A stretch of 32,000 nt of DNA, from assembly GCF_000829155.1 (NCBI RefSeq), contig NZ_AP013293.1, positions 253,353 to 285,352 of the forward strand, written 5' to 3'. This DNA is from Candidatus Karelsulcia muelleri PSPU. GTDB lineage: Bacteria > Bacteroidota > Bacteroidia > Flavobacteriales > Blattabacteriaceae. The translations under genes and the position numbers were made by a program. Below the pieces are notes generated by a model that saw only the letters and a program-made list of their open reading frames with translations, had not been told where the DNA came from and searched no databases. Positions 9,533 to 23,318 of this stretch are shown piece by piece. Position 1 is the first letter of the stretch; every line of letters starts with the position of its first letter.

Positions 9533-10453
9533 ATGTATAAAAAAATGTATGAATATCATAATCCTGTTTTATTGGATGAGACCTTGACTCTCTTAGTTAA
9601 AGAAATTGATGGAATTTATATAGATACAACTTTTGGTGGGGGGGGACATTCTTTTTCATTATTAAAAAAATTAAATAATAAAGGGAGGCTAATTGCTTTT
9701 GATCAAGATATATATTCTATAAAAAAAAATAATATAATTGATACAAGATTTAATCTTGTGAAAACCAATTATATATTTATAAAAAAAATATTAAAAATAT
9801 ATAATCTTAATAAAGTCTCTGGTATATTAGCTGATTTAGGAATTTCTTCTCATCAAATAAATACTCCAAAAAGAGGATTTTCAATTAGATCTAATAGTAT
9901 TTTAGATATGAGGATGGATACTTTTAATAAAATTAATGCAAAATATATAATAAATAATTATTCATATAATGAATTATATAATATATTTAAAATATATGGA
10001 GATATAAAAAATTATAAATTTTTAGCAAAATTAATTCTAAAACAAAGAAAAAAAAAATATATAAAATATACATTTGATTTAATTAATATATTAAAAGTTT
10101 TTTTTAAAAAAAAACTAGAAAATAAATTTTTATCAAAGATCTTTCAATCTTTACGAATAGAAGTAAATAATGAAATCAATGCATTAAAATATTTATTAAA
10201 TAATTCTTTATCTATATTAAAACCTGGAGGTAGAATTGCTGTTATATCTTATAATTCTATAGAAGATAGAATTGTTAAAAAATTTTTAAAAACTGGAAAT
10301 TTTAATGGAGTTGTTTCATATGATGGATATGGTAATAATATATCACCTTTAATTCTTTTAAAACCTAAAATAATTTTTTCTTCTAAAGAAGAAATTAAAA
10401 AAAATAATAGATCAAGAAGTGCTATATTAAGAATAGCAGAAAAAAAACTATAA
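9533..10453 (+). CDS. rsmH: 16S rRNA (cytosine1402-N4)-methyltransferase RsmH/MraW
   Basis: 306 aa. ..YHNPVLLDE.. and the SAM-binding motif ..DTTFGGGGHS.. are present, as is ..SYNSIEDRIVK... The start could be ATG 9533 or 9545. Confidence 0.9.
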   Translation: MYKKMYEYHNPVLLDETLTLLVKEIDGIYIDTTFGGGGHSFSLLKKLNNKGRLIAFDQDIYSIKKNNIIDTRFNLVKTNYIFIKKILKIYNLNKVSGILADLGISSHQINTPKRGFSIRSNSILDMRMDTFNKINAKYIINNYSYNELYNIFKIYGDIKNYKFLAKLILKQRKKKYIKYTFDLINILKVFFKKKLENKFLSKIFQSLRIEVNNEINALKYLLNNSLSILKPGGRIAVISYNSIEDRIVKKFLKTGNFNGVVSYDGYGNNISPLILLKPKIIFSSKEEIKKNNRSRSAILRIAEKKL

Positions 10454-10455
10454 TA

Positions 10456-10760
10456 AAGTAAACTTATAAGCCGGATTCTGTATTTATCATTTATCTGGGA
10501 AAAAAGTTACCTTTTTACTCTATCTGCCCACCCCCCGAATTAATAGTTAAAGGGAATACTACACTTTTTTTAAAAAGTATCCGGTATACATTGCATTTCA
10601 CAACACAGAGTTTACAATATTTCACTACAGCCTAACTGTACTTTATTTCTGTTGCACTATTCCTAATCTCACGATGGCCGGGAATTACCCGATGTGTTCC
10701 CCTAATGTGTCCGGACTTTCCTCATTATTTAATAATAAACGCGATAAAAAAGTCTACTTC
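10456..10760 (-). ncRNA. rnpB: RNase P RNA (bacterial type A, size-reduced, ~305 nt)
   Basis: A relatively GC-rich island with no ORF. The minus strand contains the universal P4/CR-I box GAGGAAAGUCCGGACAC (revcomp of 10707-10723). It also has GUGCAACAGAAA, and CCCAGAUAAAUGAUAAAUACAGAAUCCGGCUUAUAAG (CR-V; core is revcomp of 10463-10481). A P1 helix pairs AAGUAGAC (10759-10752) with GUUUACUU (10463-10456). Ends are approximate to a few nt. Confidence 0.9.
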
Positions 10761-10761
10761 T

Positions 10762-12300
10762 TTATAAAAAATTTTCTTTTATTATTCTTGGATAAACCCA
10801 TTTAAGTAAATTCATATAAGAATATAAACCTCCCTCAAAATGTTGGGGGATAGTAGGTTTATAATTTATATAAATATTTTCAGCATTAAATTTATTAGTA
10901 ATAGAAGATATTATGTATCTATCATTACAAAATATATATCCTGTAAAAAAAAAATTTGTTTTATTCACTAAATAAATAGTTTTTTCCCAATTAGAATCTT
11001 CATATATATAAACTGTTAAGACTGGGCCAAATATTTCATCTATCATACTTTCATAATATGGATTATTAGTTTCTATTACTGTTGGAGTAATAAAATAACC
11101 TTTTGAACTATCACATTTTCCACCAATAATAATATTACAATTATTATCATTCTTAGCTCTATATATATATCCTTTAATTTTATTAAAACTAATTTCATCA
11201 ATTACAGATGTAATAAAATTTGAAAAATTCCTAGGACTTCCTAGTTTCATAGAATGAATATTATTTATTAATAATTTTTTTATATTTTCTTTCCATAAAG
11301 ATTTTGGTATATAAGCTCTAGACACAGCAGACAATTTTTGTCCTTGATATTCAAAAGCTCCATATGAAAGTGCTATAGATACTTCTTTTGAATTAGAATT
11401 AGGATGTACCCATATAAAATTTTTTCCTCCTGTTTCTCCTACAATACGTGGAGAATATCTATATAAATCTATTTTTTTACTTATATTTTTAAATATTTTT
11501 TTAAAGACTTCTGTAGAGCCTGTAAAATTTATTCCTGCAAAATTTTTATGTTTTAATATAACATTTGATGTAGTTTTTACATTTGTTAATAACATATTAA
11601 TTACACCATCAGGCAATCCAGATTTTTTAAATATTTCCATTAAAACATTTGCAGAATATAATTGTTTATTAGATGGTTTCCATAATACAACATTTCCCAT
11701 AAGGGCCATACAAGCTGGTAAATATCCAGATATAGAAGTAAAATTAAATGGTGTTATTGCAACTACAAATCCTTTTAAAGGACGATAATATAAACTATTA
11801 AAAACTCCTCTACTATATAAATATTTCTTATTATATATTATATATGCATATTCTATATGAAATTTTAAAAGATCTATTAATTCACAAGCGGCATCTATTT
11901 CAGATTGAAAAATATTTTTCGATTGACCAATCATTGTAGCTGCATTAATTTTCATTCTATATGGACCAGAAATTAAATCAGCAGCTTTTAAAAATATAGA
12001 AGCTCTATCTGCCCAAGATAAATTTGACCAATTTTTATGGACTGATAAAGATGAATTAATTGCATTATTAATATCTTTTTCTGATCCTTCATGCCAATAT
12101 CCTATAATTTTTTTATTATCATGTGGAGGAGAAATAGGATGTTTTATTCCACTAAAAATTTTTTCATTTCCAATATATTGAGGAATATCTATTTTAGAAT
12201 TAAACATTTCATCATAAAGTCTTTTTAATTTTAAACGAGAAATAATATCATTATTATAATCATGTATTGGTTCATTAATAAAAAATTTTTTTTTATACAT
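10762..12300 (-). CDS. pruA: 1-pyrroline-5-carboxylate (L-glutamate gamma-semialdehyde) dehydrogenase homolog, catalytic Cys replaced by Leu
   Basis: 512 aa, collinear with the Bacteroidota-type P5CDH/ALDH family (..WADRASIFLKAADLISGPYR.KINAATM.GQSKN..Q.EIDAACELID.., ..AITPFNFT.., ..VGETGGKNF..). The nucleophile motif reads FEYQGQKLSAVSRAYIP instead of ..QGQKCSA... About 11 residues are missing from the C-terminal KPTGAVVG..PFGGAR.SGTNDKAGS segment. Confidence 0.85.
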   Translation of the reverse strand: MYKKKFFINEPIHDYNNDIISRLKLKRLYDEMFNSKIDIPQYIGNEKIFSGIKHPISPPHDNKKIIGYWHEGSEKDINNAINSSLSVHKNWSNLSWADRASIFLKAADLISGPYRMKINAATMIGQSKNIFQSEIDAACELIDLLKFHIEYAYIIYNKKYLYSRGVFNSLYYRPLKGFVVAITPFNFTSISGYLPACMALMGNVVLWKPSNKQLYSANVLMEIFKKSGLPDGVINMLLTNVKTTSNVILKHKNFAGINFTGSTEVFKKIFKNISKKIDLYRYSPRIVGETGGKNFIWVHPNSNSKEVSIALSYGAFEYQGQKLSAVSRAYIPKSLWKENIKKLLINNIHSMKLGSPRNFSNFITSVIDEISFNKIKGYIYRAKNDNNCNIIIGGKCDSSKGYFITPTVIETNNPYYESMIDEIFGPVLTVYIYEDSNWEKTIYLVNKTNFFFTGYIFCNDRYIISSITNKFNAENIYINYKPTIPQHFEGGLYSYMNLLKWVYPRIIKENFL

Positions 12301-12315
12301 AAAATTATTTTAAAT

Positions 12316-13950
12316 TTAATTTTTAGTAAAATTAAATATAATTTTTTTTCCAAAAGGTGTATAATATGGATTGTTAGAATTAAATAAATTTTTAATTAAA
12401 TATTTAATTTTTAAATTATTAATTTTTACTCCATTTTTAATAGAAAAATATTTACATATTTTTTTATAAAAAATCTCAAGATTTAAATCAAAATTTGATA
12501 TAATACTTTTTATAAAATTAGATATATTATATGACTCTAACATTAGAGGTATATATTTAACTAAAATAATATCTTTAATAAGATTAATTTCAAATCCTAA
12601 ATAATTTAATTTATTTATTATTTCTTTTATAGAAGAATAATTTTTATTAATAATTTTTATTTCGATTGGAAATCGAATTTTTTTTTTTTTTTTATATTTT
12701 TTATAATAAAAAAAATCATATAAAATTCTTTGATGAGCACGATTTTGATTGACTAATATGAGTTCAAATTTAATAAAGCCTAATAGATATTTATTATAAA
12801 TTTGAATCCATTTATATAAATAATATTTATTTACGTTTTCTAAAAAAAAATTAGAATTAAATTTTTTTTCTTTTAAAGATTCTTTTATATTTTTATATTT
12901 TTTATTAAAAAAAAAGATATAATTTTTATCAGTATCTTTTTTTTTTAAAAAAAATTTTTTAATATTATTAATTCCTAAATATTCTTTAATAAGAGTACTA
13001 ATTTTATTACATAAATATATTTCATCATAAAATTTTACTTTTGTTTTGTATGGACTAATATTAATATTAAATTTACTAGGATCCATCGTTAAAAAAATAA
13101 AATAAGAAGGATTATATTTTTTTTTTGTAAGACCTTCATAAGAATTTATAATAGCATTATGTAAATTTTTATTTTTTATAAATCGTTTATTTAAAAAAAT
13201 ATATTGTTTTTTTAAATTAAAATATTTAGTATTTGTTATGTAACCTTGTATTTTAACTAAGTTAGTCGTTTTTTTTATTTTAATTAAATATTTTTTTATT
13301 TTTTTACCAAAAATTTTTATTATACGTTTTTTATGTGAAGATTTTTTTAAAAAAAAAACAATTTTTTTATTATTTTTTAAAATAAAATTTATATCATTAT
13401 GACTTAATACAATTTTATAAAATTCATTAATAATATTTTTTAATTCTAAATTAGAAGATTTTAAAAATTTCCTTTTAACAGGAATATTATAAAATATATT
13501 CTTTATACATATGCTACACCCTTTATCCATGGAAATTGGTAATGGTTTATATTTTAATTTTCCATTTTCTATAATAAGCCTTATTCCTATATCTGATTCT
13601 ATATATCTTGTATCAATTTCTATCTGGGTAACAGAAGTAATATAAGATAAAGCTTCACCTCTAAATCCTTTAGTTGAAAGATTTAAAAGATCTTCTACTT
13701 TATTTATTTTTGACGTAGAATATCTCTCAAAACTTTTTATAGCATCATTTTTACTCATTCCTATACCATCATCTATAATATGTATTCTATCTTTACCTCC
13801 ATTTAATAATATTATTTTTATATTTTTTGCATAAGCATCTATAGAATTTTCTAAAATTTCTTTTAATATTGATGATGGGTTATGTATTACATCTCCAGAT
13901 GCTATTTTATTTGATACATTTTTTGATAATAATTTTATTACATCAGTCAT
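12316..13950 (-). CDS. mutL: DNA mismatch repair protein MutL (endonuclease motifs degenerate)
   Basis: ORF-track entry trimmed to ATG 13950 (MTDVIKLLSKNVSNKIASGDVI..). GHKL ATPase motifs are intact (EILENSIDA, DDGIGM, GFRGEAL). The C-terminal domain is recognisable, but DQHA..E....E reads NQNRAHQRILYD and CPHGRP reads TPFGKK. Confidence 0.88.
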   Translation of the reverse strand: MTDVIKLLSKNVSNKIASGDVIHNPSSILKEILENSIDAYAKNIKIILLNGGKDRIHIIDDGIGMSKNDAIKSFERYSTSKINKVEDLLNLSTKGFRGEALSYITSVTQIEIDTRYIESDIGIRLIIENGKLKYKPLPISMDKGCSICIKNIFYNIPVKRKFLKSSNLELKNIINEFYKIVLSHNDINFILKNNKKIVFFLKKSSHKKRIIKIFGKKIKKYLIKIKKTTNLVKIQGYITNTKYFNLKKQYIFLNKRFIKNKNLHNAIINSYEGLTKKKYNPSYFIFLTMDPSKFNINISPYKTKVKFYDEIYLCNKISTLIKEYLGINNIKKFFLKKKDTDKNYIFFFNKKYKNIKESLKEKKFNSNFFLENVNKYYLYKWIQIYNKYLLGFIKFELILVNQNRAHQRILYDFFYYKKYKKKKKIRFPIEIKIINKNYSSIKEIINKLNYLGFEINLIKDIILVKYIPLMLESYNISNFIKSIISNFDLNLEIFYKKICKYFSIKNGVKINNLKIKYLIKNLFNSNNPYYTPFGKKIIFNFTKN

Positions 13951-14028: not shown

Positions 14029-15366
14029 GTGAAACTCTGGCAAAAAAATTTTGAAATTAATAAAAAAATAGAAATATTTACAGTAGGAAAAGATAGAAAT
14101 TTAGATTTATTTTTAGCACCTCATGATGTTATAGGGACATTAGCACATATAATAATGTTAGAAACAATAGGTCTATTAAACATTAACGAATTAAATTCTT
14201 TAATTAAAGAATTACATATTATTTATGATACAATTATATCTGGAAAATTTAAAATAGAGGATAATGTCGAAGATATACATTCTCAAATAGAATTAATATT
14301 AACTCAACGTTTAGGAGAAATCGGTAAAAAAATCCATAGTGGAAGATCTAGAAATGATCAAATTTTATTAGATATAAAATTATTTATTCGTAAAGAAATA
14401 CAAGAATTAGTTTTTTTAATTAAAAAATTATTTAATGTCTTAATATATTTAAGTAATCGTTATAAAAAAATATTAATTCCTGGTTATACACATTATCAAA
14501 TAGCTATGCCTTCTTCATTTGGTTTATGGTTCGCCTCTTATGCAGAAAGTCTTATAGACGATATATGTTTTTTAAAAAACGCTTATAATATTTCTAATAA
14601 AAATCCTTTAGGTTCAGCAGCTGGATTTGGATCATCTTTTTCATTAAATAGAAAACTTACAACAGATCTTTTAGGTTTTGAAGATTTAAATTATAATGTA
14701 GTATATGCACAAATGTGTAGAGGTAAAACAGAACGTATAGTTTCACAAGCTATTTCATCATTAGCTAGTACTATGAGTAAAATATCTCAAGATATATGTT
14801 TATATATGAGTCAGAATTTTAATTTTTTTTCATTACCTGATAATTTAACTACAGGATCTAGCATAATGCCACACAAAAAAAATCCAGATGTATTTGAATT
14901 AATAAGATCTAGATGTAATAAAATTATTTCTTTACCTAATCAAATATCAATTATAATAACTAATTTATCTTCAGGATATCATAGAGATTTACAAACTATT
15001 AAAGAAATTTTTTTACCAATATTTGATGAAATTAAAACAATAATATTAATATCTACATTTATGTTTAAAAAACTAATTATAAATAAAGAAATATTAAATG
15101 ATAAAAAATATAAATATTTGTTTAGTGTAGAAGTTGTTAATTCTTTAGTTAAAAAAGGTGTCTCATTTAGAGAAGCATATAAAAAAATTGGATTAGATAT
15201 CCAAAAAGGATGTTTTTATCCAATTACTGAGATAAAACATTCTCATGAAGGAAGTATAAGCAATTTATGTAATAAAAAACTTTCATATATAATGAAAAAT
15301 TCAATAAAACAATTTAAATTTGAAATTGTTAATAAAGCCATTAATAAATTATTAATTAATATATAA
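14029..15366 (+). CDS. argH: argininosuccinate lyase
   Basis: 445 aa with a GTG start (GTG AAA CTC TGG = MKLW, the usual ArgH N-terminus). The fumarate-lyase signature TGSSIMPHKKNPD and ..HSGRSRNDQ.. are present. Confidence 0.93.
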   Translation: MKLWQKNFEINKKIEIFTVGKDRNLDLFLAPHDVIGTLAHIIMLETIGLLNINELNSLIKELHIIYDTIISGKFKIEDNVEDIHSQIELILTQRLGEIGKKIHSGRSRNDQILLDIKLFIRKEIQELVFLIKKLFNVLIYLSNRYKKILIPGYTHYQIAMPSSFGLWFASYAESLIDDICFLKNAYNISNKNPLGSAAGFGSSFSLNRKLTTDLLGFEDLNYNVVYAQMCRGKTERIVSQAISSLASTMSKISQDICLYMSQNFNFFSLPDNLTTGSSIMPHKKNPDVFELIRSRCNKIISLPNQISIIITNLSSGYHRDLQTIKEIFLPIFDEIKTIILISTFMFKKLIINKEILNDKKYKYLFSVEVVNSLVKKGVSFREAYKKIGLDIQKGCFYPITEIKHSHEGSISNLCNKKLSYIMKNSIKQFKFEIVNKAINKLLINI

Positions 15367-15368
15367 TT

Positions 15369-16850
15369 TTATTTCATTTGAGGAAAAAATAAAACATCTT
15401 GTATACATTTGTTATTTGTTAATAACATTATTAACCTATCTATTCCAATTCCTATTCCTGCACATGGGGGCATTCCAAATTCTAAAGAACGTATAAAATT
15501 ACAATCTATTAACATAGCTTCATTATCTCCTTTATTATAGAGTTTAATTTGTTCTCTAAATCTTTTTAATTGATCAATAGGATTATTTAATTCAGAATAT
15601 GAATTTGCTATTTCATTTCCATTAATTATCAATTCAAACCTTTCAGTTAATCCTTTTTTACTTCTATGTATTTGAGTTAAAGGACTCATTTCTATTGGAT
15701 GATCCATAATAAATGTAGGATTAATATATTTTTTTTCACATTTTTCACTAAAAATTAGATCAATAATTTTACCTTTTCCCATACTATTATCTATTTTTAC
15801 ATTTATTTTTTTACATATTTTAATTATATTTTTTTCATCCATTCCATATAAATCATAGCCAGTATTTTCTTTAATTGAATCTAATATTGTTATTTTTTTA
15901 AATGGAATATTAAAATTTATAATATTATATCCAATTTTTATAAATTTTTTATCATGTATTTTTACACATAAAAATTCTAGCATTTTTTCTATAAAAATCA
16001 TCATCCAAAAATAATCTTTATAAGATACATATAATTCTAAAATAGTAAATTCTGTATTATGTATTTTATCTATACCTTCATTTCTAAAATTTCTAGAAAA
16101 TTCATAAACGGATTCTAATCCTCCTACAATTAATTTTTTTAAAAATAATTCATTTGAAATACGTAAATATAATGGTATATTTAGTGCATTATGATGAGTC
16201 ATAAATGGACGAGCGATAGCCCCTCCAGGGATTGATTGAAGTATAGGAGTTTCTACTTCTAAATATCCTTTTTTATTTAAAAAATTACGAATATATTGTA
16301 TTATTTTAGTTCGCTTTCTAAATATAGATTTTGTTTTATCATTAACTATTAAATCTAAATATCTCATACGATAACGTTGTTCAGACTCATAAAAAGAGTC
16401 ATGAACTTTTCCAGTTTCATCTTGTTTAACATGGGGTAAAACACGTAAACATTTAGATAATAATTTTATTTTTTTAGCATGTACAGTAGTCTTATTACTT
16501 TTAGTTTTAAATAAAAAACCTTTTATTCCTATAATATCTCCAATATCTAAAAGTTTTTTAAAAAAAAAATCATAATTTTTTATACTATCTCTTTTAAGAT
16601 AAATCTGTATTATTCCATGTTTATCTTTCATTTCTATAAATGAGGCTTTTCCCATTATTCTCATTCTAATAATACGTCCAGAAATAATTACATTTTTTCC
16701 ATATTCATAAAATTTAATCAAATATATTGATGTTGCATTTACATAATATTCTTCAGACGGATAAGGATTTATACCCAATTTTATAATTTCATAAAGTTTT
16801 TTTCTACGTATTATTTCTTGATCTGATAATTTTATAAAATTTTTATTCAT
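15369..16850 (-). CDS. lysS: lysine--tRNA ligase (class II)
   Basis: ORF-track entry trimmed to ATG 16850 (MNKNFIKLSDQEIIRRKK..). The 30 upstream codons read through the tRNA gene and are an artefact. OB-fold N-domain plus class II core (..FRNEGID..H..EFT..E.Y.., ..GMPPCAGIGIGIDRL.M). Confidence 0.93.
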   Translation of the reverse strand: MNKNFIKLSDQEIIRRKKLYEIIKLGINPYPSEEYYVNATSIYLIKFYEYGKNVIISGRIIRMRIMGKASFIEMKDKHGIIQIYLKRDSIKNYDFFFKKLLDIGDIIGIKGFLFKTKSNKTTVHAKKIKLLSKCLRVLPHVKQDETGKVHDSFYESEQRYRMRYLDLIVNDKTKSIFRKRTKIIQYIRNFLNKKGYLEVETPILQSIPGGAIARPFMTHHNALNIPLYLRISNELFLKKLIVGGLESVYEFSRNFRNEGIDKIHNTEFTILELYVSYKDYFWMMIFIEKMLEFLCVKIHDKKFIKIGYNIINFNIPFKKITILDSIKENTGYDLYGMDEKNIIKICKKINVKIDNSMGKGKIIDLIFSEKCEKKYINPTFIMDHPIEMSPLTQIHRSKKGLTERFELIINGNEIANSYSELNNPIDQLKRFREQIKLYNKGDNEAMLIDCNFIRSLEFGMPPCAGIGIGIDRLIMLLTNNKCIQDVLFFPQMK

Positions 16851-16881
16851 AAAATAATTTGAATGATAATATAAACAAAAG

Positions 16882-16955
16882 TGACCTCGAAGGGAGTTGA
16901 ACCCCCAACCTTCTGATCCGTAGTCAGATGCTCTATCCAATTAAGCTACGAGGCC
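16882..16955 (-). tRNA. tRNA-Arg (anticodon ACG)
   Basis: The minus strand reads GGCCTCGTAGCTTAATTGGATAGAGCATCTGACTACGGATCAGAAGGTTGGGGGTTCAACTCCCTTCGAGGTCA. It folds by hand into a cloverleaf: 7-bp acceptor, D stem GCTT/GAGC, anticodon stem TCTGA/TCAGA with loop CTACGGA, T stem GGGGG/CCCTT with loop TTCAACT. No encoded CCA. Confidence 0.93.
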
Positions 16956-21932: not shown

Positions 21933-22352
21933 TTAATTAAAATTTGGAATTTTATTAAAAAATAAAATTCTATTATTTTTTTTATCTATTTTAAATATTA
22001 AATAATTTATATAATTAGTAATTATTAAATAATTACTTTTAAGAAAAAAAAAATATTTAATGATTTGATCAAATACTTTTTGTGAAAAAATACATGAAGA
22101 TTTACATTCAATAAGAATATAAGGTTTTTTTTTATTATAAACTATAATATCTATACGTTTTTTTACCTTATTAAATATAAAATATTTCTCTACAAAAATA
22201 GAAGAGATATCATATCCTTTATTTATAATTAAATGATATAATATATTTTGTCTAATAAATTCTTCTTTAGTAAAAATATAATATTTATTTCTAATAATAC
22301 AATAAATATATGTATTATTATTATAATATTTATAATAAAAATTATATTTCAT
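21933..22352 (-). CDS. small HsdR_N-like / PD-(D/E)xK-fold protein of unknown function
   Basis: 139 aa. The pattern ..TKEEFIRQN.LYHLI..KGY....I.VEK......KKRIDIIVYNKKKPYILIECKSS.......FDQI.KY...L...YLIITN.. matches my memory of the 'type I restriction enzyme R protein N-terminal domain' family, widespread as a stand-alone protein in Bacteroidota. The D..ExK triad appears intact (D68, E82, K84). Confidence 0.7.
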   Translation of the reverse strand: MKYNFYYKYYNNNTYIYCIIRNKYYIFTKEEFIRQNILYHLIINKGYDISSIFVEKYFIFNKVKKRIDIIVYNKKKPYILIECKSSCIFSQKVFDQIIKYFFFLKSNYLIITNYINYLIFKIDKKNNRILFFNKIPNFN

Positions 22353-22360
22353 TTAAAAAA

Positions 22361-23318
22361 ATGTTCTTAACATATAAAAAAAAAATACTTCAAGATTTGA
22401 AGAATAAAAAAATAAAACCTATTTATTTTTTTATGGGAGAAGAAAGATATTTAATAGAAAATTTATCTAATTCAATTGAATTTTTTTTTTAAAAAAAAAA
22501 TTTTTAATAAAAAAATCATATATGGATATGATATAGATCTTAAAAATCTTATTTTTGTTGTAAAACAAATTCCTATACATATAGAAAATTTATACAATTT
22601 GATAATTGTAAAAGAAGCACAATATTTAGCATACAATATTGAAAATTTATATAAATTAATAATTAATAGTAATACTATTTTAATTATTTGTTATAATGAT
22701 AAAATTCTTGATAAGAACACAAAATTATATAATAAAATTAAAAATATTGGAACTATCTATAATAGTGTAAAATTAAAAAAAATAGAAATTTTTTATTTTA
22801 TTCAATATGAAATTGAAAAAATAGGATTTATTATTACTAATAATGCTATTAACCTTATAATAAAATATATAGGTAAAAATTTATATAAAATAAATAATGA
22901 AATAAAAAAAATTTTAATATTATTAAATGATAAAAAAAAAATAGATAAAAAATTTATAAAAAAAAATTTATTAAAAGATAATAATAAATATTCTAAATTA
23001 GAATTATATATAGTAAAAAAAGATTTATTTAAATCTTATAAAACAATTTTTAATTTAAAAAATGTAACAATTAGTATTGTATTAAATAGAATATATATTT
23101 TTTTTATTAAAATAATTAAATTTAATTTATTAAAATTAAATAATTTTAATTTTATTAAAAAAAAAAATATATATTTTAAAGCAATAAAAATTTATCCATT
23201 AAATAAAATAAAAAATATTATTTCATATATAAGAGAATCAGACACTAAAATAAAAAATTCTTCATTAAAAAATGAATATCTTATAAAAGAACTTTTGTCT
23301 AAAATATTTAATAATTAA
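22361..23318 (+). CDS. holA: DNA polymerase III delta subunit, interrupted by a +1 frameshift at 22490 (would be flagged pseudo by pipelines)
   Basis: ATG 22361 opens MFLTYKKKILQDLKNKKIKPIYFFMGEERYLIENLSNSIEFFF*, which looks like the delta N-terminal box. The remainder (..IYGYDIDLKNL....KQIP........LIIVKEAQYL... to 23318) is in the +1 frame (ORF track 22476..23318). The halves join across T10-A10. The sequence is very divergent, so the call rests on motif order, length (~320 aa joined) and the HsdR_N neighbour. Confidence 0.7.
22481..22505. repeat. homopolymer junction T10-A10-T5 at the holA frame break
   Basis: Read directly: gaa tttttttttt aaaaaaaaaa ttttt (T10 22481-22490, A10 22491-22500, T5 22501-22505). 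Confidence 0.95.

Follow-up and report, generated by a model that had tools for sequence, protein, structure and literature searches.

The mutL locus and its product

The 32,000-nucleotide stretch of contig NZ_AP013293.1 analysed here (the window, with a GC content of about 21%) carries at positions 12316-13950, on the reverse strand, the mutL gene of a Karelsulcia (Sulcia)-like symbiont. Its product is a 544-residue MutL mismatch-repair protein in which the residues of the known endonuclease site are replaced. The open reading frame (ORF) matched the TIGR00585 mutl model with 355 bits, and three Pfam domains were found over threshold, namely HATPase_c_3 (E 1e-11), DNA_mis_repair (E 7e-24) and MutL_C (43.8 bits, cutoff 25). 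A longer mechanical ORF call with a TTG start at 14043 was dropped, since every homologue begins MTDVIK. The protein shares 66-68% identity with full-length Karelsulcia muelleri MutLs and 33-45% with those of free-living Flavobacteriia.

Gene order in the window runs through ribosomal protein genes, secY, rpoA, rplQ, dapF, rsmH, RNase P RNA, P5C dehydrogenase, mutL, argH, lysS, tRNA-Arg, pdhA/C, pfkA, gapA, holA, trxB, rlmB, pheS and ilvA/C/B/D, and the order around mutL (lysS, argH, mutL, aldehyde dehydrogenase, RNase P RNA, rsmH, dapF) agrees with that of complete Karelsulcia (Sulcia) muelleri genomes. The window mutL is an ordinary Bacteroidota-group MutL gene and a divergent Sulcia orthologue. 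No mutS, dnaN, UvrD-type helicase, mutH or dam gene lies within the 32-kb window. The gene, its N-terminal half and its linker are laid out as follows, all on the reverse strand:

12316..13950, mutL coding sequence, 544 codons from the ATG at 13950, plus the TAA stop at 12316-12318
12961..13950, N-terminal GHKL ATPase and transducer domain (residues 1-330), from Pfam, motif alignment and fold match
13834-13860, EILENSIDA, GHKL motif
13756-13773, DDGIGM, GHKL motif
13648-13668, GFRGEAL, GHKL motif
13510-13524, KGCSI, GHKL motif IV by alignment, with Thr changed to Cys
13036-13056, K302 lysine loop, carrying the transducer-domain lysine that contacts the gamma-phosphate
12817..12960, disordered linker (residues 331-378), with a predicted local distance difference test score (pLDDT) below 50 throughout and a ratio of nonsynonymous to synonymous substitution rates (dN/dS) of about 1

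Residues E31, N35, D60, G62, G64, R97, G98 and K302 align with E. coli E29, N33, D58, G60, G62, R95, G96 and K307, and all are present. Motif IV Thr143 is Cys in the window MutL and in five other aligned Sulcia MutLs, whereas it is Thr in the compared free-living relatives and in E. coli. The N-terminal fold matches the B. subtilis and E. coli MutL N-terminal domains (9N2K, 1B63) with target-normalised template modelling (TM) scores of 0.87-0.90. The linker is about half as long as in free-living relatives, whose proteins have 580-625 residues.

The C-terminal domain and its metal site

A full-length fold search gave matches to the N-terminal domain only, and a separate model of the C-terminal part was therefore built. 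The features of this part, again on the reverse strand, are:

12319..12816, C-terminal dimerisation and regulatory domain (residues 379-544), from the Pfam MutL_C match, the AlphaFold model and Foldseek
12715..12750, helix equivalent to DQHA(X)2E(X)4E, NQNRAHQRILYD (residues 401-412), from the DNA read, phmmer and MAFFT
12430..12459, region equivalent to ACR, ICKYFSIKNG (residues 498-507), from the Aquifex phmmer alignment and MAFFT, with Lys on the column of the ligand Cys and a Cys one residue earlier
12343..12360, region equivalent to CPHGRP, TPFGKK (residues 531-536), from the DNA read, phmmer and MAFFT, with P532 invariant

The AlphaFold model of residues 376-544 alone had a pLDDT of 89.5 and a predicted TM score (pTM) of 0.84. 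With Foldseek it matched B. subtilis 3GAB (E 2e-10), N. gonorrhoeae MutL (NgoL) 3NCV (TM 0.73-0.77) and E. coli 1X9Z (TM 0.71), with overall TM scores of 0.65-0.77; MLH1 C-terminal domains (3RBN, 4E4W chain A) were also found, with lower scores. This part of the protein is thus confidently predicted to fold as a MutL C-terminal domain, and a dimerisation role is predicted with it.

The reverse complement of 12715-12750 reads AAT CAA AAT CGT GCT CAT CAA AGA ATT TTA TAT GAT (N401 to D412) and that of 12343-12360 reads ACA CCT TTT GGA AAA AAA (T531 to K536). Against the B. subtilis MutL C-terminal domain (3GAB/3KDK), phmmer paired IIDQHAAQERIKYEYF with LVNQNRAHQRILYDFF and CPHGRP with TPFGKK, while against Aquifex 5B42 it paired LACRISVKAG...CPHGRP with ICKYFSIKNG...TPFGKK. 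When 80 relatives, B. subtilis and E. coli were aligned with it in MAFFT, the motifs fell in the same columns. In the ACR region the B. subtilis phmmer alignment differs by four columns from MAFFT and the Aquifex alignment; the register of the latter two was used, and the Cys lies off the ligand column in either. Misalignment of the motifs was ruled out by the agreement of three sequence alignments and the structure-based match. Within the helix Q402, A405 and H406 do not vary across relatives, and R408, I409, L410 and Y411 hardly do.

In B. subtilis numbering the window MutL carries D462N, H464N, E468Q, E473D, C573K, C604T, H606F and R608K. The metal ligands, taken here after Pillon et al. 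2010 to be His464, Glu468, Cys573, Cys604 and His606, are therefore all replaced, by N, Q, K, T and F, respectively. The M1 and M2 catalytic metals are bound by the DQHA.., ACR and CPHGRP motifs, of which the leading Asp is not a ligand (PMC10366529). The Arg of CPHGRP is catalytic, and in T. thermophilus its change to Lys abolishes complementation in vivo (PMC10366529). Because the five ligands are replaced and the catalytic Arg is Lys, the window MutL would almost certainly be unable to nick DNA by the known two-metal mechanism. The features that mark the endonuclease subclass, namely the DQHA(X)2E(X)4E ligands, the ACR/SCK cysteine and the Cys, His and Arg of C(P/N)HGRP, are each absent from the window MutL, and it is therefore not to be filed in that subclass despite its database name. 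The NCBI name "endonuclease MutL" is a family label and not a test.

In order to place these substitutions, one genome per species was scanned with N-terminal MutL patterns, so that recovery was independent of the C-terminal motifs. This gave 80 free-living loci from five orders or order groups (Flavobacteriales, Cytophagales, Chitinophagales/Saprospirales, Sphingobacteriales and Bacteroidales). The sample holds Bacteroidota-like loci only. The residues found at the positions in question were:

Cys573 (ACR): Cys 0/80; Lys 49, Arg 13
Cys604 (CPHGRP): Cys 4/80; Ser 58, Thr 12
His606 (CPHGRP): His 1/80
His464 (DQHA): His 13/80
Glu468: Glu 41/80; Gln 30/80, mostly in Flavobacteriales
Arg608: Arg 13/80; Lys 56/80
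Asp462: Asp 51, His 19, Asn 5

None of the 80 free-living MutLs has the full five-ligand set, and neither DQHA..E....E nor C[PN]HGRP was matched among the 117 closest full-length database homologues. Positions 464, 573 and 606 hold 11, 10 and 14 different residues across the loci. The backbone of the helix is conserved (Q463 in 80/80, A466 in 79/80, H467 in 76/80, R469 in 79/80 and E473 in 75/80), and so is the motif V turn P-x-G. Twelve other homologues of free-living length contain the identical octet NQNRAHQR. The loss of the metal site is common to free-living relatives and is therefore an inherited trait and no sign of recent decay in the symbiont; judged from these residues, the two-metal nuclease site was lost before the sampled orders diverged. 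No discussion of Bacteroidota MutL nuclease motifs or mismatch-repair phenotypes was found among the papers searched. Two of the loci bear odd taxon labels (L066, a Hyphomicrobiales metagenome-assembled genome, and L075, Christensenellaceae); both have a typical Bacteroidota MutL and neighbour genes, and the labels probably stem from faulty binning or contamination of the assemblies.

These results bear on the original prediction, which was made from the letters of the window and a list of its open reading frames alone. Its description of intact GHKL motifs was borne out, motif IV Thr143 being the sole listed ATPase residue to differ, and so was its motif register, by phmmer, MAFFT and AlphaFold/Foldseek alike. 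Its claim that the endonuclease-site residues are lost stands for all five ligands by alignment, and at DNA level for the two motifs it named, although the Asp of DQHA does not belong among the metal ligands. The replacement of the ligands and of Arg608 likewise agrees with its view that the protein should be unable to incise, and a nick-independent role would be the sensible reading. It had also supposed that Bacteroidota depend on the MutL nick, which the counts in free-living members contradict, and had offered recent inactivation, in keeping with mutator-driven AT drift, as one explanation, to be refuted by close free-living relatives that carry the same substitutions and still repair mismatches. 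Free-living relatives do carry them, and the substitutions are therefore no recent inactivation.

Selection and erosion in the symbiont lineage

The other five frames of mutL hold 23-91 stops per about 544 codons, the two shifted frames of the sense strand having 67 and 91, and within the C-terminal domain a stop would arise from about 7% of single-base changes. In a neutral, AT-biased simulation with the gene's own composition, the C-terminal domain stayed free of stops with P=0.08 at 5% divergence and P<0.005 at 10%, levels far exceeded by the observed divergence of mutL from other Sulcia (dN 0.28, dS 0.33). As the frame could not have stayed open neutrally, selection must be acting on mutL.

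Against four Sulcia genomes, dN/dS by the method of Nei and Gojobori (NG86) was 0.55 for mutL, 0.24 for argH and 0.32 for lysS, and by part of mutL it was about 0.33-0.37 for the N-terminal domain, about 1 for the linker and 0.85 for the C-terminal domain; at about 16-21% GC, however, such values are unreliable, since compressed dS inflates the ratios. Identity between the window and Sulcia is 0.78 in the N-terminal and 0.61 in the C-terminal domain, while free-living pairs with an N-terminal identity of 0.75-0.80 have a C-terminal identity of 0.55±0.05, a control that we judged better than dN/dS. Faster decay of the C-terminal domain specific to the symbiont, as the raw values of 0.85 and 0.36 might suggest, was rejected, the same relation being found in free-living pairs. 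On sequence divergence, then, the C-terminal domain decays no faster than the N-terminal domain predicts and the whole gene evolves faster than core genes; mutL reads as intact and held open by selection, but by selection that is relaxed.

Three features of the C-terminal part, on the reverse strand, mark erosion specific to this lineage:

12667..12684, beta-clamp-binding motif in degenerate form, KKIRFP for QxxLFP (residues 423-428), by alignment with the 80 free-living MutLs
12678-12693, in-frame A16 run (mutL codons 420-425), overlapping the clamp motif and coding for the lysines that replace its start
12301..12315, relic of former C-terminal codons past the stop, reading I, stop, N, N, F, from a codon-for-codon alignment with ...KEKIKKLFIK of other Sulcia

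About 95% of the 80 free-living MutLs have the clamp motif (Q 79/80, L/M/I 77/80, F 76/80, P 79/80). The K at its first position and the R at its fourth, which in the window MutL amount to Q487K and I490R in B. subtilis numbering, are both without parallel among the 80. Clamp- and PCNA-binding motifs all conserve the Gln and the bulky hydrophobic residue (PMC6511837). The contact with the beta clamp thus appears to have been lost in the window MutL. The segment of about 14 residues around the motif is kept there, with an FP remnant, and is deleted in other full-length Sulcia MutLs. The A16 run is a likely hotspot of replication or transcription slippage. At the end of the gene, an AAA-to-TAA nonsense change has cut about nine C-terminal residues, including a near-invariant Phe, and through this premature stop the position of motif VI (FxR) is gone. 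In one other Sulcia this tail carries a frameshift of independent origin.

Relatives have gone further. Sulcia-GWSS (CP000770), the closest relative by the N-terminal domain (85% identity, dS 0.20), has a mutL ORF that ends at residue 367, and the 460 bp beyond it (L087:5105-5567) hold what is left of the C-terminal domain, its frame broken (tblastn, 45% identity to the window domain over 161 residues). In another Sulcia lineage the domain is deleted, with a 55-bp gap left (L089:5096-5149). The N-terminal-only ORFs of these two lineages (364-367 residues) have a dN/dS of about 0.37-0.39, the same as full-length genes. In leafhopper Sulcia mutL is a 135-bp relic or pseudogene (PMC3787670), while mutS is retained everywhere (PMC3787670, PMC7952229). 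The informative changes in the symbiont are thus the lost clamp motif and the trimmed C-terminus, and not the missing nuclease residues.

The prediction had rightly stressed that the frame stays open in spite of frequent out-of-frame stops. Separate dN/dS for the two halves, which it had proposed, did differ (about 0.36 and 0.85), but the implied excess decay was not upheld by the normal relation of N- and C-terminal identities. Its suggestion of a gene on its way out finds some footing in the trimmed C-terminus, the lost clamp motif, the raised dN/dS and the pseudogenised or deleted C-terminal domains of sister Sulcia, whereas the loss of the metal site, on which it had been built, is no evidence for it. 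Nor is a "clamp-binding half" retained as proposed, the motif conserved in the phylum being KKIRFP here.

A probable non-nicking MutL and the alternatives

The window mutL is the orthologous gene of a Karelsulcia-like endosymbiont, with a phylum-typical C-terminal domain. In our judgement its product is probably a non-nicking, ATP-driven matchmaker of a kind ancestral to the phylum and under relaxed selection here. The C-terminal domain keeps the dimerisation and regulatory fold and the active-site helix backbone Q..AH.R[IV]LY[ED], minus the two-metal site. Like E. coli MutL, the protein would be a clamp powered by ATP that engages MutS once a mismatch has activated it and then permits excision downstream, leaving the DNA uncut by MutL. 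The break in the strand would be supplied by pre-existing 3' or 5' ends at the replication fork, or by some other nuclease. The strong conservation of the clamp motif suggests that in the phylum a clamp-oriented use of replication-associated ends may be part of the mechanism; in the symbiont the clamp contact seems to have gone too, which would fit a reduced role.

The partners of E. coli MutL are MutH and Dam. MutH is not known outside some Gammaproteobacteria. Like the E. coli type (1X9Z, 1B63, 6E8E), the window MutL combines a GHKL ATPase with all catalytic residues, motif IV aside, and the same C-terminal fold without the metal-ligand residues. In free-living Bacteroidota, as in E. coli MutL, the clamp motif QxxL[FI]P is the sole C-terminal motif retained, and the window copy lacks it. 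QxLLxP is the only C-terminal motif held in common with E. coli MutL (PMC2965676), and its loss from the non-nicking E. coli protein causes merely a mild mutator phenotype (PMC6511837). Unlike its E. coli counterpart, the C-terminal domain of Bacteroidota MutL is visibly of endonuclease-type descent: Q..AH.R.LYE and xPxGK persist in it, and B. subtilis and N. gonorrhoeae MutL, not E. coli MutL, give the best sequence and Foldseek E-values. With endonuclease-type MutLs (B. subtilis 3GAB/3KDK, N. gonorrhoeae 3NCV, Aquifex 5B42), of which 3GAB is the best sequence match (E 3e-4, C-terminal domain alone), the window MutL has in common the order of domains, the Gln of motif I, the place of the active-site helix and the motif V P-x-G turn; it departs from them at the five ligands, Arg608, Asp462 and the lost motif VI position. 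The eukaryotic MLH1 and PMS1 (MutLbeta) subunits also have C-terminal domains without DQHA(X)2E(X)4E, non-catalytic there (PMC2965676). Unlike bacterial MutL, MLH1 and PMS1 pair in heterodimers with a nuclease subunit (PMS2, yeast PMS1 or MLH3), while the bacterial homodimer would have no catalytic subunit. The other Karelsulcia MutLs (such as CP001605 SMDSEM, CP029017 and CP000770 GWSS) are orthologous, with the same gene order, the same Thr143Cys and the same metal-site residues, except for a D where the window has N; the window MutL differs from them in keeping the clamp segment and losing the C-terminal tail, and GWSS and one further lineage have the N-terminal domain only.

Some observations weigh against a non-nicking MutL of this kind. 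Asp462, Glu468 and Glu473 are kept in many Bacteroidota outside Flavobacteriales, which may have a weak or differently coordinated metal site; such a site is much less likely in the window MutL, where these residues are N, Q and D. We infer the absence of nicking across Bacteroidota MutLs from residues alone. The signal of relaxed selection leans in part on NG86 ratios, and the neighbouring P5C dehydrogenase gene reaches 0.85 as well. Finally, mutH is given by Waneka et al. 2020 as one of the genes that Sulcia-CARI retains (PMC7952229), which, if true, would change the reading of a non-nicking MutL.

That the nuclease site was lost recently, during genome reduction, leaving a pseudogene in waiting, seems unlikely. 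The raised dN/dS of the C-terminal domain and linker, the nonsense codon that took the last nine or so residues, the lost clamp motif, the pseudogenised or deleted domain in Sulcia-GWSS and another lineage, and the 135-bp leafhopper relic (PMC3787670) all point that way. For the metal site, however, this is contradicted by free-living relatives, in which the full ligand set is equally absent, and for the gene as a whole the case is weak, given a frame whose neutral persistence the simulation excludes, a ratio of C- to N-terminal divergence that is normal for the phylum and a well-modelled C-terminal domain. A function other than repair, exerted mainly by the N-terminal ATPase (modulation of recombination, or mismatch and indel sensing with MutS but without excision) and with a dispensable C-terminal domain, is very improbable. 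It would account for the open N-terminal-only ORFs of two Sulcia lineages, with a dN/dS like that of full-length genes, and it accords with the retention of mutS throughout Sulcia and the very few 1-bp indels even without mutL (PMC7952229). Against it, the C-terminal domain is still maintained in the window, and the pairwise dN/dS of the truncated genes averages over the time before truncation.

It is also quite unlikely that Bacteroidota MutL is still an endonuclease with other catalytic residues, for instance Asp/His462, Gln463, His467, Arg469, Glu473 and Lys608 with a single Mg2+ or Mn2+. The active-site helix is indeed among the most conserved parts of the C-terminal domain, with Q402, A405 and H406 invariant, and the clamp motif, an activator of nicking in B. 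subtilis, is kept by nearly all free-living members; moreover, no universal methyl-directed system is evident in Bacteroides (PMC10333322). Yet A, H, R and Y/E of the helix are structural in canonical MutLs and partly kept in E. coli MutL (AER), and positions 464, 573 and 606 vary widely, contrary to what is expected of a catalytic site. The clamp motif is likewise kept by the non-nicking E. coli MutL (PMC2965676), and in the window MutL both it and Asp462 and Glu468 are gone.

Beyond the favoured account of a non-nicking MutL in the symbiont, one may ask whether the whole phylum runs MutS-MutL repair without a two-metal MutL nuclease and, as far as is known, without MutH/Dam, incision or strand choice being made by something undescribed. 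We regard this as possible, though doubtful. In the Bacteroides fragilis group GATC methylation occurs only sporadically (PMC10333322), evidence against a Dam/MutH-type system being universal. Candidates for incision would be replication-associated ends, reached through the conserved beta-clamp motif, or a partner nuclease, for which an Exo_endo_phos gene near mutL offers a lead. The symbiont MutL would then be a minimal version of that system. If this were true biochemically, the textbook split between MutH-dependent and MutL-nicking repair would omit a major phylum that includes dominant gut genera and many insect symbionts, and explanations of the unusually low mutation rate of Sulcia would be affected. 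For annotation, the missing nuclease residues say nothing about decay in the symbiont, and mutL is best recorded as intact but under relaxed selection; the name "DNA mismatch repair endonuclease MutL" is given to all Bacteroidota MutLs, although the full set of defining nuclease residues is absent in 80/80 of those sampled.

In the free-living loci, two same-strand rhomboid-family genes follow mutL in 69 of the 75 with enough flank (downstream region e.g. L055:7863-10713). Beyond them lies, in 44/64 loci with enough downstream sequence, a membrane-anchored Exo_endo_phos gene, whose product has several predicted N-terminal membrane helices and a weak likeness to ExoIII/APE1 (E about 1e-9 to 1e-3, below cutoffs), and also matches VanJ. 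This gene is a lead for strand incision and not a finding. A small gene of about 95-134 codons without a Pfam match stands just upstream of mutL in 54/80 loci. Neither the window nor any Sulcia locus examined has the rhomboid pair, the Exo_endo_phos gene or the small upstream gene beside mutL.

Several other features of the window were recorded:

10451-10760, reverse strand, RNase P RNA of bacterial class A, complete (155 bits), flanked by rsmH and the P5C dehydrogenase gene
10762-12300, reverse strand, 1-pyrroline-5-carboxylate (P5C; L-glutamate gamma-semialdehyde) dehydrogenase
21933-22352, reverse strand, 139-residue ORF
22476-23315, forward strand, holA (DNA polymerase III delta) homologue
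15369-16955, reverse strand, lysS as mechanically called

The P5C dehydrogenase has 512 residues, compared with 413-457 in other Sulcia, and scores 555 bits, under the NCBIfam cutoff of 614; its NG86 dN/dS against other Sulcia (about 0.85) is level with that of the mutL C-terminal domain. The 139-residue ORF has no NCBIfam match and sits in the stretch of lowest GC in the window (about 15%). The holA homologue, at 79.3 bits, is borderline under the NCBIfam cutoff of 80, and suggests that this lineage retains clamp-loader parts gone from leafhopper Sulcia. The called lysS ORF has a TTG start and overlaps tRNA-Arg(ACG) at 16881-16955, and the model match begins only at about residue 40; the true start is probably an internal Met downstream of the tRNA gene.

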